Below are positions 19,482 to 36,911 of a stretch of 64,000 nt of DNA, piece after piece; within the stretch, counting starts at the first letter, position 1; each line of letters starts with the position of its first letter. The notes under the pieces are model-generated. The model did not search any database, was not told the DNA's origin, and saw nothing but the letters and a program-made list of their open reading frames with translations. Source of the stretch: Candidatus Zixiibacteriota bacterium (GTDB taxonomy: Bacteria; Zixibacteria; MSB-5A5; GN15; JAAZOE01); NCBI GenBank assembly GCA_043819555.1, contig JBDREQ010000076.1, positions 32,001 to 96,000 on the forward strand, read 5' to 3'. Both the position numbers and the translations under genes were made by a program.

Positions 19482-20930
19482 TCATTCAGGATAACAAATA
19501 TCCAGCGTTTTGGTCGCTTTAACTTCGTCAAGACGCCTGACCGGCGTATTATGCGGTGCCTCTCTTACAAGGTCCGGATCACTGTCAATTTCTTTGTCAA
19601 TTTGAAGCATCACGTCCGCAAAATAATCCAGCGTTTCTTTTGACTCCGTTTCGGTCGGTTCAATCATAATCGCCTCTGGAACAATAAGCGGAAAATAAAT
19701 CGTCGGCGCATGAAGCCCAAAATCAAGAAGACGCTTGGCGATATCGGCGGTTCGTATGCCCCGCTTTTTCTGCCTGTTTCCCGAGAGAACAAATTCGTGC
19801 TGGCAAATACCATTAAACGGTACTTCAAACGCGTCTTTCAGCCGTTCCTTAAGATAATTGGCATTGAGAACGGCATTTTCCGACACGCGTTTCACGCCGA
19901 GCGGGCCAAGATGCCTCAAATAAGTATAGGCGCGAACCATATTGGCGAAATTGCCGTAGAATGAATGCATTCTGCCAATGCTCTCCGGGCGATCATAATC
20001 AAGAAAATATTTCCCGTCTTTTTTGGTTATAATCGGTTTGGGCAAAAATGGAATCAACTCATCGGTCACAGCCAATGCCCCGGCACCGGGACCGCCTCCG
20101 CCGTGTGGAGTAGATAGCGTCTTATGCAAATTATAATGGACAATGTCAAAACCCATATCGGCTGGACGAGATTGGCCCATTAGCGCGTTGAGATTGGCGC
20201 CGTCCATATAAAGCATACCGCCGGCCGCATGAACAACTTTTGCTATTTTCTCAATTTCAGTCTCGAACAACCCCAGAGTATTAGGATTGGTAATCATTAT
20301 CCCGGCCGTTTCCTTATCCATAACCTCGGCAATATGCTCAGCCGAAATAATGCCTTTATCCGAAGAACTGAACTGGTTCACCTGATACCCGGATAATATT
20401 ACTGAGGCCGGATTAGTTCCATGAGCAGAATCGGGAATCAAAATTTTCTTCCGGACATCTCCCCGCTTTTTCATTGCCGCCCGTATCAGAAGCAATCCCA
20501 TTAATTCACAGTGAGCCCCGGCCACTGGTTGCAATGTTGCTTGCTTAAATCCGGTTATTGTCGCCAGCATCTCAGCAAGTTCATACATCAATCGCAAGGC
20601 TCCCTGACATTCCTCAATCGGCGCTAATGGATGTAATTTCGAGAAACCATGCAATCCGGCCATGGCATCATTGACTTTTGGGTTATATTTCATCGTGCAT
20701 GAACCCAACGGATAGAATCCCTTGTCGATATGATGATTGCGAGTGGACAATTCTATATAATGACGCACCAGTTCCGGCTCAGATATTTCAGGCAATCCCG
20801 AAGCGTCCTGACGACGGTATTTCTCCGGGATTAATCCGGTTACTTTATCCACACCCGATTTCAATTCCGGCAGGGAAAAACCCGACCTGCCTGATCGGGA
20901 TTTTTCATAAATTAAAATATCTTTGTTCAT
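19482..20930 (-). CDS. gcvPB: Glycine dehydrogenase (decarboxylating) subunit 2
   Basis: YPLGSCTMKYNP, SAHGTNPAS, YMDGANLNA, NLHKTLSTPHGGGGPG (PLP lysine). Confidence 0.97.
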   Translation of the reverse strand: MNKDILIYEKSRSGRSGFSLPELKSGVDKVTGLIPEKYRRQDASGLPEISEPELVRHYIELSTRNHHIDKGFYPLGSCTMKYNPKVNDAMAGLHGFSKLHPLAPIEECQGALRLMYELAEMLATITGFKQATLQPVAGAHCELMGLLLIRAAMKKRGDVRKKILIPDSAHGTNPASVILSGYQVNQFSSSDKGIISAEHIAEVMDKETAGIMITNPNTLGLFETEIEKIAKVVHAAGGMLYMDGANLNALMGQSRPADMGFDIVHYNLHKTLSTPHGGGGPGAGALAVTDELIPFLPKPIITKKDGKYFLDYDRPESIGRMHSFYGNFANMVRAYTYLRHLGPLGVKRVSENAVLNANYLKERLKDAFEVPFNGICQHEFVLSGNRQKKRGIRTADIAKRLLDFGLHAPTIYFPLIVPEAIMIEPTETESKETLDYFADVMLQIDKEIDSDPDLVREAPHNTPVRRLDEVKATKTLDICYPE

Positions 20931-20940
20931 ATTATTTTGA

Positions 20941-21903
20941 TCAGCTGCCTTCGGTTTCCTCCGGAGGATTTTCTATTTCTTCGATTTGTTCTTTAACCCA
21001 GTTTGCGTCTCCGGAATCAGGGTGCTTTTCCAAAAATTCTTTGAATAAAAGCAAGGCCTTATCATTATCGCCCTTTTGCTTGAGGCAATACGGAATATAA
21101 ACCATGGCGTCCAAAATCAATTCTGAATCGGGGTATTCCTTCATAAAGGTCTCAAATGCGGCTATAGCCTCATCATATTTTTCCGCCCGCGATTTTGTCG
21201 TCGCGATAGAAAAAACGGCATCATCAACCAATTCAGACTCAGGATATGTGGTCTGCAATTTCTGAAAAGCCTCTTCGGCCCCGGCATACTGTTTGGCCCG
21301 TTTTTTCATCTGACCCAAATTATACAGGGCACTGTCGGAATAACCATCCTTGTTGGTGGGATCGCCCTGTAATATCTTGCGATAGAAAGTTTCAGCATCG
21401 GTATAGGCGCTGCGGCTGGTATATTTTTCAGCGATTTTGTTATACAATTGCATGGTCGGCGCTGTTTCAGCCTGTTGTAGATAATCTCCCAGGGTATTTT
21501 TGTTCATCAAATAATCATTGACGGTCTGGATGAAATCTTCGGGAGGAGCATAACCCCAAATCCGATCAATTTCGGTTCCATCAGCATTGGCAATTATCTC
21601 GCTTGGATAACCACTAATGCCATAATGTTGAGCCAGGGTAGTATCTTCCCAGCCGTTAACTTTAACGGCCACGAGCTTAGAACTTATCAATTCAATAACT
21701 TCATCGTTTCGATACGTCACGGTATCGAGGACATGGCACCATGGTCATTTGACTCGCCAAAAAGATATTAAGACTTTCTTTCCCTGTTCGTTGGCTGCCT
21801 TAAGCGCATTATCATAAGAATCGACGAATTTAACTTCATTGGCGGCGCTTATACCGGCAAACGCAAATAACACCAAAAGTACAGCCAATACGGCTTTCTT
21901 CAT
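20941..21903 (-). CDS. Putative exported selenoprotein: thioredoxin fold (UxxC) plus TPR repeats, 320 aa, Sec at codon 53
   Basis: ATG 21903 with GAGGA RBS; reads MKKAVLAVLLVLFAFAGISAANEVKFVDSYDNALKAANEQGKKVLISFWRVK-(TGA 21745-21747)-PWCHVLDTVTYR in frame into ORF 20941..21720; cis-Pro GYP motif; SECIS-like hairpin. Confidence 0.85.
21709..21728 (-). promoter_or_regulatory. Candidate bacterial SECIS element
   Basis: UCGAUAC-CGUGAC-GUAUCGA perfect 7-bp stem; loop starts 23 nt after the UGA, with G at the second loop position. Confidence 0.75.
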
Positions 21904-21920
21904 GTTGTCCTCACTTTTGT

Positions 21921-22310
21921 TTAGTTTATATCTATAAATCTTGCTTTATTCCAATCGTCACCAAGAATTACTTCGCCCTCGTGCATAGCATCTTCGATAA
22001 ATTCTTCCGGGACGAGAATAGTATAGCCTCCCCCAACCGAACGTGAGGAAGATATACCCATTTGACCGGTGGCTCCAAAATGTCCCGCCCCTGAAATCAT
22101 TACCACCGGTATGTCCTTTGCTTTTAATCCCTCAATCACCATATAGGCAAGTTGATCACTGAGTAATCTCACCAGAGGAGTCCAATTATCGTAATCCAGT
22201 TCATTTTCTTCATCTTTTACTGGCAAAGAATCAACCAATTTGGCTTCGCAATCGGGACATTCGCCGATTCCCCACTCATATTCATATTTACATTTGGGAC
22301 AAAACGGCAT
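21921..22310 (-). CDS. Zinc-ribbon plus DUF2007-like (putative signal transducing) protein
   Basis: MPFCPKCKYEY...ECPDC zinc ribbon; A..VIEGLKAKDIP...ILVPEE DUF2007-like fold; start ATG 22310. Confidence 0.8.
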   Translation of the reverse strand: MPFCPKCKYEYEWGIGECPDCEAKLVDSLPVKDEENELDYDNWTPLVRLLSDQLAYMVIEGLKAKDIPVVMISGAGHFGATGQMGISSSRSVGGGYTILVPEEFIEDAMHEGEVILGDDWNKARFIDIN

Positions 22311-22314
22311 AGAA

Positions 22315-22638
22315 CTACCCTTCATCCTCTTCAGATGTCTCTTGCTTGCTATCAAGGAATATCTTAACCAATTCCGATGCCTCGGCTTCATATTCGCCCG
22401 GTACCATAATCTTAAACATTTCTACTTTTCCCGAATATAAAGATCTTAATGGCAACCCAGCCGACCCAAATACTCCCGGCTTTGTATCTAATACTGCGGG
22501 GATATCATAGGACTTCAAACCATTCACAGCAAATTCAGCGGTCATACGATCGGGTGCTTCCGCTACTACAACCCAATTAGTTCTGATCTCAGAATTCTCA
22601 TAGAGTTCTTCGTTTATGTTATTATTTTCCGGTTCCAT
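22315..22638 (-). CDS. DUF2007-like protein
   Basis: WVVV...AEFAVNGLKSYDIPA...IMVPGEYEAEASEL pattern; probable start ATG 22638. Confidence 0.75.
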   Translation of the reverse strand: MEPENNNINEELYENSEIRTNWVVVAEAPDRMTAEFAVNGLKSYDIPAVLDTKPGVFGSAGLPLRSLYSGKVEMFKIMVPGEYEAEASELVKIFLDSKQETSEEDEG

Positions 22639-24004
22639 CTCGTATTGAAGCCTTTGCAGGTTTCTCCTCACTATTTATGTGTGACAACACCTCAACTAAT
22701 GCGTCGCAATCCCCAAAACTATTCATCTCTGTAACAGCCAAAAGCAAATGATTGTTCAAATCGGGATAAAAAATACTCAGATCAATCCCGGCTCCAAAAC
22801 CCTTAGCATTGGCGAGTTCAAGTATTTGCCCGGCGGGGGCATTGGTTTCTACTACAAATTCTTTGAAAAACGGCTTCTCATTCCAAACTCGATATCCTTT
22901 GATTTGAGAGATTTTATCGGCTAGATAATGGGCCCGCTCGGTTGATATTTGAGCAACTCGCCGGATACCGTGCCTGCCCATCAGCGACATATAAATCGTC
23001 GCCGCTGTTGCGCATAAGGCTTCGTTGGTGCAAATATTCGAAGTCGCTTTATCACGCCGAATATGCTGCTCTCGCGTTTGGAGCGTTAAAACAAATCCGG
23101 ATTTTCCATCAACATCAGTCGTTCGAGCCGCCAGTCTTCCGGGGATTTTTCGAACAAACTCCTTACGGCAGGCAAATAATCCAAGAAGCGGCCCACCGAA
23201 ATTTTGCGGAATGCCAAATGACTGCCCCTCGCCAACGGCAATGTCGGCATTGTATTCGGCCGGGGTCTTTAATATCCCAAGTGAAATTGGGTCGAAGACA
23301 TTGACGAACAGTCCCCCGGCATCATGAATTGCCTTTTCTCCCCGCTCTATATCCTCAAGATATCCAAAGAAATTCGGCTGACCCAAGATTAAGCAGGCAC
23401 ATTGGTCATCTATAAATTCGTTTAAGATATTGTAATCCGTCGAACCATTGGCATATGGGACAGTGACTATTTCCAAATCCATCCCCTGAATCGACGTTTT
23501 CAATACATCCCGATATATCGGATTGATCGTTTCAGAAATCACAATTTTATTTCGCCGCGTGTGGTTAACGGCCAAAAGAGCCGCTTCGGTCACAGCCGTT
23601 GCCCCATCATAAAGCGAGGCGTTGGCAACATCCAATCCGGTCAGGCGGCATATATGAGTCTGGAACTCATAAATAACCTGAAGCGTTCCCTGCGCGACTT
23701 CGGCCTGATACGGCGTATAGGCTGTCATAAATTCAGGACGCATTGCCAGCGACCAGACTACCGGTGGAATAAAATGATTATAAATTCCGGCCCCAATAAA
23801 ATTAGTTTTACAGGTGTTATTCCTGCCAGCCATCTCTTCCAGATGGCGAACAAGTTCCGGCTCGCTTAAAGCCGGCGGCAATTCGAGCGGTTTCTTCAAA
23901 CGCAATTTTTCAGGAACCGCGGCGAATAAATCAGCGGTTTTAGAAACCCCGATTGATTTAAGCATGGCCTTTATATCATCGGGGCTATTGGGTATGTATA
24001 CCAT
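22622..24004 (-). CDS. gcvPA: Glycine dehydrogenase (decarboxylating) subunit 1
   Basis: TAYTPYQAEVAQGTLQ, NASLYDGAT, TREQHIRRDKATSNICTN. Confidence 0.97.
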   Translation of the reverse strand: MVYIPNSPDDIKAMLKSIGVSKTADLFAAVPEKLRLKKPLELPPALSEPELVRHLEEMAGRNNTCKTNFIGAGIYNHFIPPVVWSLAMRPEFMTAYTPYQAEVAQGTLQVIYEFQTHICRLTGLDVANASLYDGATAVTEAALLAVNHTRRNKIVISETINPIYRDVLKTSIQGMDLEIVTVPYANGSTDYNILNEFIDDQCACLILGQPNFFGYLEDIERGEKAIHDAGGLFVNVFDPISLGILKTPAEYNADIAVGEGQSFGIPQNFGGPLLGLFACRKEFVRKIPGRLAARTTDVDGKSGFVLTLQTREQHIRRDKATSNICTNEALCATAATIYMSLMGRHGIRRVAQISTERAHYLADKISQIKGYRVWNEKPFFKEFVVETNAPAGQILELANAKGFGAGIDLSIFYPDLNNHLLLAVTEMNSFGDCDALVEVLSHINSEEKPAKASIRDGTGK

Positions 24005-24011
24005 AGGCAGT

Positions 24012-24392
24012 TTATTCCGTAATCAATTCTTTGTATTGGTGCGCGCTTAATAAGCTGTCAATTTCTTCAGGTTTTGACATTTTAACTTTAATCATCCAGC
24101 CCTGACCATACGGATCCTTGTTGATAATCCCAGCATCTTCTTCAATCATATCATTTACGGCTCCAACCGTACCGCTGACAGGCGAGAACATTTCCGAAAC
24201 CGCTTTTACAGCTTCAATAGTGCCAAAAGCTTCCATTTTTTTTACATCGCTTCCGATGTTCGGAAGCTCGACAAAAACTATATCTCCCAACTCCCCCTGG
24301 GCAAAATCTGTGATTCCGATTTCGGCCTCGTCATCTTTAATGCGGACCCACTCATGTTCTTTTGTATACTTTAATTCTTCAGGAATATTCAC
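24012..24392 (-). CDS. gcvH: Glycine cleavage system H protein
   Basis: LKYTKEHEW, GITDFAQGELGDIVFVELP, EAVKA lipoyl-Lys; GTG start 24392 with GGAGG RBS. Confidence 0.97.
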   Translation of the reverse strand: MNIPEELKYTKEHEWVRIKDDEAEIGITDFAQGELGDIVFVELPNIGSDVKKMEAFGTIEAVKAVSEMFSPVSGTVGAVNDMIEEDAGIINKDPYGQGWMIKVKMSKPEEIDSLLSAHQYKELITE

Positions 24393-24412
24393 ATAACCTC
24401 CCAATAATATCA

Positions 24413-25798
24413 TCAAGACGTCTGCTTGGTTTTATCCTTTTTCTTCAATCCGGCTTCCTTACTCAAATGCTTCTCGATAAACGAAGTGTCAAAATGTCCT
24501 GATACAAAATCAGGTTGCGTCAAAATTAATTTATGGAAATCAATTGTGGTTGCCACGCCTTCCACAATAAATTCATCCAATGCCGTCAACGTTTTTACAA
24601 TCGCATGCTGCCGGTCATTACCCTTAACAATCAGCTTGCCAATCATTGAATCGTAAAACGGGGGAATAATATATTGACCGTACGCATGAGTATCTACTCG
24701 TACGCCATGTCCCCCCGGCTGATGAAATGTAGTAATTTTTCCCGGAGATGGTCTGAAACCATTTTGAGGATCCTCGGCATTTATCCTGCATTCAATTACA
24801 TGACCCCGAAAGTTGACATCTTCCTGGCGCAATTCCAGCCTCTCTCCCGAAGCGATTTTTATCTGTTCGGCGACGATATCAATTCCGGTCAACTCCTCGG
24901 TCACTGGATGTTCCACCTGGATCCGAGTATTCATTTCCATGAAATAAAATTGGCCATTATTATCGACCAAAAACTCAATCGTTCCGGCGCCTCGATATCC
25001 GACCGAGGCGGCTCCTTTAATCGCGGCCTCACCCATTCGGCGGCGCAAGTCGGCATCGACAATTGGTGAAGGTGATTCTTCCAGTAATTTTTGATGGCGC
25101 CGCTGAACGGAGCAATCACGCTCCCCCAAATGAACGATATTGCCATAATTATCGCCGAGAATCTGCATTTCAACATGATGCGGTTCAAATACGACTCTCT
25201 CTATATATAATGCCCCGTCATTAAAGGCCGCCTCGGCTTCGGCTCGCGCCATATTAAATGCCGTTTCCAGTTCTTCCGGTGCCCTGGCGATTCTCATTCC
25301 CCGACCGCCGCCGCCGGCGGATGCTTTAATTAAAACCGGGTAACCGACCTGTTCGGCAATACGAGCCGCTTCGTCTATACTATGTATCAAGCCATCGGAA
25401 CCGGGAATCGTCGGAACTCCAGCCTTCTGCATCAATTCTTTGGCCTTGGCCTTGGCGCCCATTTGACGAATCATCTGGCCGCTTGGCCCGATAAAGGTGA
25501 TATTGCATTCTTCACAAATTTCAGCGAATTCGGCATTTTCTGCCAAAAAACCATATCCCGGATGGATAGCTTCCGCATTTGTTACTTCGGCCGCGGCAAT
25601 GATTCGTTTGGGATCCAGATAAGATTCAAGGGCCTGCGGTGGGCCAATGCATACATCTTCGTCAGCAAAGCGCACATGCAGTGAATCGGCATCAGCTTCG
25701 GAATACACCGCCACCGTCTTGATTCCAAGGTGTTGACAGGCGCGTATTATCCTGAGCGCGATTTCGCCCCTGTTAGCTACTAATATTTTTTTAAACAA
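24413..25798 (-). CDS. accC: Acetyl-CoA carboxylase biotin carboxylase
   Basis: [43 protein letters not shown]. Confidence 0.97.
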
Positions 25799-29803: not shown

Positions 29804-29889
29804 TGCCGGAGGCCGGACTTGAACCGGCACGAGCCTAACGGCTCAAGGGATTTTAAGTCCCTGGCGTCTACCAATTCCGCCACTCCGGC
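29804..29889 (-). tRNA. tRNA-Leu(TAA)
   Basis: GCCGGAG/CTCCGGC acceptor stem, AGGGA-CTTAAAA-TCCCT anticodon arm, long variable arm, GTTCAAG T-loop; no encoded CCA. Confidence 0.96.
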
Positions 29890-36829: not shown

Positions 36830-36911
36830 TGGAGGGGGAAGGATTCGAACCTTCGAAGGCATCGCCAATAGATTTACAGTCTATCCCCTTTGGCCGCTCG
36901 GGAACCCCTCC
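36830..36911 (-). tRNA. tRNA-Tyr(GTA)
   Basis: GGAGGGG/CCCCTCC acceptor stem, ATAGA-CTGTAAA-TCTAT anticodon arm, variable arm, GTTCGAAT. Confidence 0.96.

Follow-up and report, generated by a model that had tools for sequence, protein, structure and literature searches.

A probable exported UxxC selenoprotein with a tetratricopeptide repeat domain, truncated in the public annotation of the Zixibacteria

The most frequent bacterial selenoproteins are thioredoxin-fold proteins with a UxxC motif. Among other thioredoxin-fold proteins, DsbH and the C-terminal domain of DsbD (DsbD-gamma) are reductases, and CnoX (YbbN) is a cytoplasmic protein. A UxxC family described as 'thiol:disulfide interchange protein' (PF13098), known from the first selenoprotein surveys onwards, is tabulated, and predicted with high confidence, in the published tables of PMC13188914 and PMC9312934, and selenoproteins of the same name were counted in Syntrophus and Geobacter species in PMC1794560. 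Here we describe a gene on the minus strand (20941..21903) of a 64,000-nucleotide stretch of DNA, hereafter the window, from a Candidatus Zixiibacteriota bacterium (assembly GCA_043819555.1, contig JBDREQ010000076.1, positions 32,001 to 96,000). Its predicted product is a further member of an established class, the exported selenoproteins with a thioredoxin fold and a UxxC motif; it is found phylum-wide and combines a BamD/YbgF-like tetratricopeptide repeat (TPR) domain with a CnoX-like layout. We consider it very probable that this is a real and conserved selenoprotein gene which has been systematically mis-annotated.

Read directly and aligned with full-length orthologs, the coding sequence (CDS) comprises 320 codons followed by a terminal TGA stop at 20941-20943. 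It starts at an ATG (21903-21901), 4 nt upstream of which lies a Shine-Dalgarno-like GAGGA (21908..21912, minus strand), and contains a single internal stop, the TGA at 21745-21747 (codon 53). When this codon is read as selenocysteine (Sec, U), the translated protein begins with MKKAVLAVLLVLFAFAGISAA, its active-site stretch is FWRVK-U-PWC-HVLD, with the redox motif U53-P-W-C56 encoded at 21736..21747 (minus), and a GYP motif occupies residues 98-100. Plain open reading frame (ORF) calling splits the frame into a 52-aa ORF (21745..21903) and a 259-aa ORF (20941..21720) with a GTG start (21718..21720, minus), which we consider to be false. A first-pass annotation made from the letters of the window had proposed the longer frame, with its ribosome-binding site and lone TGA, had placed that TGA at the first Cys position of a CxxC-type site (K-U-P-W-C) and had pointed out the GYP motif; all of these features were present where it located them, and the alignment described below, in which this column is TGA or Cys at 20 of 20 loci, shows that the placement is no coincidence. 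We hold with high confidence that the apparent stop inside the gene is a Sec codon and that the selenoprotein gene is intact.

This reading is carried foremost by the relatives of the gene. A homolog search with the read-through protein in 40 related genomes and the genome of origin returned a match in 41 of 41. Within the family to which the gene belongs (f1; 14 genomes, its own included), exactly one TGA lies inside the match in 12 genomes and none in the other two. The codon-53 column of the 20 aligned loci, which is the first Cys of the CxxC, holds TGA at 13 loci and TGT or TGC at seven, with Cys in the two f1 genomes lacking a TGA and in five of six more distant orthologs. A further 15 loci were fetched from families f2 and f3, adding 10 TGA forms and 3 Cys forms at the motif; L053 and L056 missed the motif pattern and were dropped from the hairpin comparison. 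Homologs thus carry either Cys or TGA at exactly this codon, which is the comparison that the first-pass annotation had suggested as a check on its proposal. It had also allowed for a simple nonsense mutation or a read error, and both are contradicted: 11 further genomes of the family, each assembled independently, have the TGA as well, so it is neither a sequencing mistake nor a private mutation. On a broader scale, sampling 201 genomes from the phylum yielded a match at E <= 1e-25 in 186; of the 150 matches listed, a hand count puts about 83 with a single TGA and about 67 without, and all 20 matches listed for family f4 are without a TGA.

A candidate selenocysteine insertion sequence (SECIS) hairpin lies within the CDS at 21709..21728 (minus strand), as judged from folding and conservation. 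It starts 17 nt past the UGA and consists of a 7-bp stem closed by a 6-nt loop, CGUGAC, within which the GTG start of the 259-aa gene call falls. Across the 12 Sec forms of f1 the hairpin does not differ by a single nucleotide, although their proteins share only 45-82% identity. We quantified this constraint over the 62 alignment columns in which a degenerate amino acid is invariant across these 12 forms: six of the seven hairpin codons (L59-R65) are a single codon in 12/12 sequences and the seventh in 11/12, whereas elsewhere only 1 of 55 columns is codon-invariant. Families f2 and f3 possess other hairpins at the same site (in f3, a 6-bp stem with the loop GGUC). Mean folding energy of nucleotides +13 to +48 is -8.0 kcal/mol for 23 Sec forms versus -4.5 kcal/mol for 10 Cys forms (one-sided Mann-Whitney p = 0.0012, a value that overstates the case because the sequences are related). 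Most Cys forms are without the hairpin, and in L034-L039 the same or a similar peptide is encoded with changed synonymous sites and the stem is lost. Taken as comparative sequence evidence, these patterns strongly support selection on the downstream stem-loop as RNA.

The genome assembly from which the window derives (3.35 Mb, 79 contigs, 97% complete) contains selA (486 bits), selB directly downstream of it (322 bits), selD (389 bits) and a tRNA-Sec with the anticodon TCA (74.3 bits against a gathering score of 47), all above their curated cut-offs. The selD gene has one in-frame TGA of its own (L001, G000:C63:76059-76982), and the selenophosphate synthetase SelD is probably itself a selenoprotein. 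A genome devoid of Sec machinery, named by the first-pass annotation as an outcome that would speak against its proposal, is contradicted by the presence of all four of selA, selB, selC and selD, and the ability of the organism to insert Sec is strongly supported. The tRNA-Sec model also produced two matches below the gathering score inside the window, at 29805-29889 (44 bits) and 36831-36911 (34 bits), corresponding to G000:C76:61805-61889 and 68831-68911; these are probably ordinary long-arm tRNAs.

Several observations weigh against the interpretation of the TGA as a Sec codon served by the hairpin. The folding energy taken alone is unexceptional: over 48 nt z is -0.85, a stability matched by 44 of 200 shuffled sequences, and over 71 nt z is -1.08. 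An Rfam scan of 21650-21800 at E <= 10 yielded no SECIS family, the sole match being a chance hit to a small nucleolar RNA. The constrained codons moreover specify LDTVTYR, a peptide that is itself highly conserved, although synonymous sites do vary in Cys forms whose peptide is identical or similar. One Cys form (L032, G013:C154, TGT) retains the full hairpin; its closest listed relative, L033, is a Sec form, which fits a recent switch from Sec to Cys, and from its sequence L032 looks like a gene in which the RNA element has not yet decayed. As for the machinery, selA is present in 40 of the 41 relatives irrespective of whether they have the Sec or the Cys form; its co-occurrence with the TGA form is therefore uninformative, and we dropped it as support. 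The genome without a selA match, G011 (93% complete), is a TGA-form genome. At the level of reads, a look-up of public sequencing data covering window 20700-22400 listed no run, whether of DNA or of RNA. Finally, the position of the TGA was inspected in 23 Sec forms, and most of the approximately 83 TGA matches of the phylum sample were counted by presence alone.

The N-terminus recovered by read-through carries features of a signal peptide (approximately residues 1-21, 21841..21903, minus strand; the cleavage site is approximate): a KK n-region, a hydrophobic core and an ISAA c-region. All f1 orthologs likewise begin with a KK or RK n-region, a hydrophobic core and a c-region of small residues. 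In the f4 orthologs, in L035-L039 and in many full-length Cys-form proteins of the database, a lipobox of the L-x-G-C type (for example L-A-G-C or G-G-C) stands at the same place instead. The first-pass annotation had called the protein exported on account of its signal peptide, and the recurrence of this signal among f1 orthologs, together with the lipobox of the sister families, sustains that view. The conserved signal features thus support a location of the protein in the cell envelope, to which it is predicted to be exported.

Two domains follow the signal peptide. Approximately residues 22-135 (21499..21840, minus strand) form a thioredoxin-fold domain according to both Pfam and structural matches; Pfam matches over residues ~20-129 are Thioredoxin_2 (PF13098; 45.7 bits against a cut-off of 27), Thioredox_DsbH (43.9 bits) and Thioredoxin_7 (34.7 bits), all above cut-off. 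A helical linker and a TPR domain of 11 helices in total occupy approximately residues 138-311 (20971..21492, minus strand), with Pfam TPR_6 and BamD-type YfiO repeats over residues ~166-300 (YfiO, 50.3 bits against 25). We predicted the structure of the protein from an alignment of 30 sequences (A1), in which TGA was read as C, and obtained a model with a mean predicted local distance difference test (pLDDT) score of 94.2 and a predicted template modelling (pTM) score of 0.85. In this model, strand 43-49 leads to U53 and then to helix 54-61, placing the motif at the N-terminus of helix 1, and G98 and P100 precede strand 101-105. The codon of Pro100, the putative cis-proline of the G98-Y-P100 loop, lies at 21604..21606 (minus strand); the residues invariant across the 30 sequences are F48, C/U53, C56, D60, G98, P100, E111, D113, R114 and G117.

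Structural comparison of the predicted thioredoxin domain (residues 22-135) returned DsbH (2ju5; Z 16.1, root-mean-square deviation (rmsd) 2.2, 113 residues aligned), the C-terminal domain of DsbD (1vrs; Z 15.6, rmsd 2.0, 107 aligned) and a putative disulphide isomerase of Bacteroides (2kuc; Z 15.6); thioredoxins score in the same Z range of 15-16 as DsbH and DsbD-gamma. Residues 187-314 match BamD (5efr, Z 18.0, rmsd 2.6, 126 aligned; 2yhc, Z 16.9) and the TPR domain of YbgF (2xev, Z 16.4, rmsd 2.3, 122 aligned). A profile search of the PDB gave the same neighbours, with E values of ~1e-17 for the C-terminal domain of DsbD (best 3e-17), 2e-17 for BamD and 2e-14 for CpoB. No NCBIfam model reaches its cut-off for the read-through protein: scores against cut-offs are 65.7/90.1 for YbgF (TIGR02795), 50.2/81.4 for BamD (TIGR03302), 39/383 for CpoB (NF008068), 45.9/805 for TsoB, which scores highest of the selenoprotein models, 34.6/330 for DsbD, 20.4/190 for DsbH and 21.3/300 for trx7_PDZ_seleno. 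The resemblance of the repeats to CpoB and BamD put forward in the first-pass annotation is thus upheld at the level of the fold and fails at the level of the family.

How the protein relates to described systems follows from these comparisons. With the PF13098 UxxC family it shares the thioredoxin fold, the UxxC motif with Sec at the attacking position and PF13098 as its best thioredoxin match in Pfam; compared with that family by its description in the tables, the protein has both a PF13098 domain and a UPWC motif. It differs in its TPR fusion, of which the published tables in PMC13188914 and PMC9312934 give no instance, and a term search of the available text of these two articles found 0 occurrences of 'TPR', 'tetratricopeptide' or 'Zixibacteria'. 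Within the literature searched (on thioredoxin-TPR selenoproteins, selenocysteine in Zixibacteria and periplasmic CnoX; article text), no description of this protein was found.

Over the whole length of the protein, the top Foldseek matches are CnoX/YbbN structures (3qou, 3qdn), which similarly place an N-terminal thioredoxin domain before a TPR domain (YbbN of E. coli and Salmonella, E 5e-8 over 288-299 alignment columns). Template modelling (TM) scores of 0.27-0.31 and an rmsd of 22 Å, at 18% identity, mean that the likeness is one of layout and not of superposition. The protein further differs from CnoX in its conserved signal peptide or lipobox, its Sec active site and a TPR domain closer to that of BamD/YbgF; given the weak superposition and the export signal, we do not place it among the CnoX/YbbN chaperedoxins and regard it as an analogue in layout. 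The closest structures to residues 22-135, those of DsbH (2ju5) and of the DsbD C-terminal domain (1vrs, 2fwe, 1uc7), come from envelope proteins; unlike DsbD, our protein is without a membrane domain, and unlike either it possesses an extra TPR domain and Sec in place of Cys. For residues 187-314 the closest structures are those of BamD (YfiO) and YbgF (5efr, 2yhc, 2xev); BamD and CpoB are without a thioredoxin domain, and assignment to BamD or to CpoB (YbgF) was rejected as the curated cut-offs are not reached.

In public databases the gene is represented almost exclusively by fragments. Among the closest 30 homologs (at least 48% identity), 29 are 248-262 aa long and cover 77-82% of the query; the sole full-length one (P0006, 320 aa) is a Cys form. 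The first-pass annotation had anticipated that standard annotation would cut the gene short, and the database entry for this very protein is indeed the 259-aa form (P0002). The truncated homologs, which come from metagenome-assembled genomes of Zixibacteria, are named, if at all, 'tetratricopeptide repeat protein' or 'TPR repeat protein', 'BamD' or 'TolA-binding protein'; the latter two names reflect the TPR part only.

The gene is located within a glycine-cleavage operon. Along the minus strand, biotin carboxylase is followed by gcvH, gcvPA, an ORF with a weak likeness to DUF2007, a 156-aa zinc-ribbon ORF, the thioredoxin-TPR gene, gcvPB and an ABC-F-type ATPase. By Pfam and synteny, gcvPA (glycine cleavage P-protein subunit 1; GDC-P, 426 bits) lies upstream in the same direction (22622..24004, minus) and gcvPB (P-protein subunit 2; 19482..20930, minus) starts 10 nt after the stop of the selenoprotein gene. 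Across the 21 loci compared (L021-L041), gcvPB is found 3' of the thioredoxin-TPR gene in all 21, including the 31%-identical L041, the sole locus returned by a search of genome contigs, and gcvPA 5' of it in 19, the sequences of L032 and L033 ending too soon upstream to show gcvPA. Sec and Cys forms do not differ in gene order. A gene for a presumably exported redox protein sits inside the P-protein gene pair (window 19482-24416); there is no obvious functional link between them, and we offer no explanation.

Other ORFs were noted in passing. The 156-aa ORF (21921-22391, minus), conserved at the loci of most relatives, carries a CxxC...CxxC zinc ribbon at its N-terminus, and its C-terminal part is similar to a 118-aa ORF (22315-22671, minus), which overlaps it and matches DUF2007 at 16.6 bits, below cut-off. 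Assignment of the 156-aa ORF to the 'DG' selenoprotein family was ruled out (26.4 bits against a cut-off of 130, with the zinc-ribbon part alone covered). Relatives also encode a second family of thioredoxin-like paralogs of ~400 aa, possibly the Trx7/PDZ (seleno)protein family. Its members have a single in-frame TGA in G003:C11, G004:C235, G011:C25 and G034:C64 and none in some other genomes (e.g. G002, G006, G022), and the family is absent from the matches listed for the genome of origin.

The whole is, in our judgement, best and very likely correctly explained by one 320-residue selenoprotein, an exported thiol-disulfide oxidoreductase of the envelope with a TPR arm. We infer that UGA53 would be decoded as Sec by SelB and tRNA-Sec, steered by the hairpin within the CDS 17 nt downstream. 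A Sec-type signal peptide would send the protein to the envelope, where sister lineages would use a lipoprotein tether. The mature protein would then present a DsbH/DsbD-gamma-like thioredoxin domain, with Sec as the attacking residue of a U-x-W-C site at the start of helix 1, opposite the G-Y-P loop. After export, this site could attack disulfides or sulfenylated cysteines of envelope proteins, with the TPR arm holding the client protein or docking the enzyme on an envelope partner or complex, and the resulting selenenylsulfide (Se-S bond) might be recycled through a membrane electron carrier of the DsbD/CcdA type. The genome of origin has two DsbD_TM-family genes (195.6 and 38.9 bits), which are possible electron donors. 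Judged from fold and motif, the protein would most likely act in the envelope as a thiol-disulfide reductase that binds clients through its TPR arm; its function is predicted at the level of 'envelope thiol-disulfide oxidoreductase'. Reduction is preferred on the grounds that its closest structural neighbours, DsbH and DsbD-gamma, are reductases, and within the overall reading we give this direction an even chance. The first-pass annotation had proposed a periplasmic Sec-containing thiol-disulfide oxidoreductase with a client-binding TPR arm: its Sec and its export have found support, and the oxidoreductase activity and the client-binding arm are what we infer from fold and motif.

Could the TGA instead be a true stop, leaving either a pseudogene or two genes, one for a leader peptide of 52 aa and one for a TPR protein of 259 aa initiated from the GTG at 21720? 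Plain ORF calling produces just this split, and the databases hold the 259-aa form of this gene and short forms of 28 other close homologs. Termination at codon 53 would, however, sever the thioredoxin fold immediately ahead of the active site. All orthologs conserve the 52 codons upstream of the TGA at the protein level, and the Cys-form orthologs are continuous. The TGA is also kept in 12 of the 14 genomes of the family and, beyond it, in other families, where a nonsense mutation would not persist. We find such a stop very improbable. That UGA is read as another amino acid, by reassignment of the code to Trp or Gly or by near-cognate read-through, would leave the frame open as well, as would any code in which TGA is a sense codon. 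Yet the gene itself and several of its orthologs terminate in TGA, which shows that TGA does not serve here as a sense codon in general; where homologs have a residue at this position it is in every case Cys, never Trp or Gly, and the genome has a complete Sec system, making this reading extremely improbable.

A genuine selenoprotein could also have another role, as an oxidase or isomerase, as a selenium- or metal-handling envelope protein, or with its UGA acting mainly as a selenium-dependent gate on the expression of gcvPB downstream. The fold leaves the redox direction unfixed, and the close spacing to gcvPB and the conserved gcvPA/thioredoxin-TPR/gcvPB order count in favour of another role. 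On the other hand, the Cys forms L032 and L034-L039 keep the same gene order, so the gcv linkage does not depend on the UGA, and the nearest solved thioredoxin folds are those of reductases. Another role of this kind is in our view unlikely. More speculative, and a long shot, is that the protein represents a phylum-wide, selenium-dependent 'periplasmic chaperedoxin', an envelope counterpart of CnoX that would employ Sec and a BamD-like TPR arm to restore oxidised cysteines in client proteins of the envelope or of outer-membrane assembly; with the gene set between the P-protein genes, decoding of UGA53 could in addition tie gcvPB expression to selenium.

For the Zixibacteria, the immediate consequence is that public annotation of the phylum is without the full protein, the deposited fragments lacking both the signal peptide and the catalytic site. 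The conserved place of the gene in the glycine-cleavage operon is unexplained and testable. Three hairpins, repeated exchange between Sec and Cys, and one apparently recent Cys convert that still has its hairpin together provide a natural series in which to follow the evolution of SECIS elements within a CDS. The predicted envelope thioredoxin-TPR architecture, a fusion that goes unmentioned in the available text of PMC13188914 and PMC9312934, would be an addition to the catalogue of UxxC selenoproteins.

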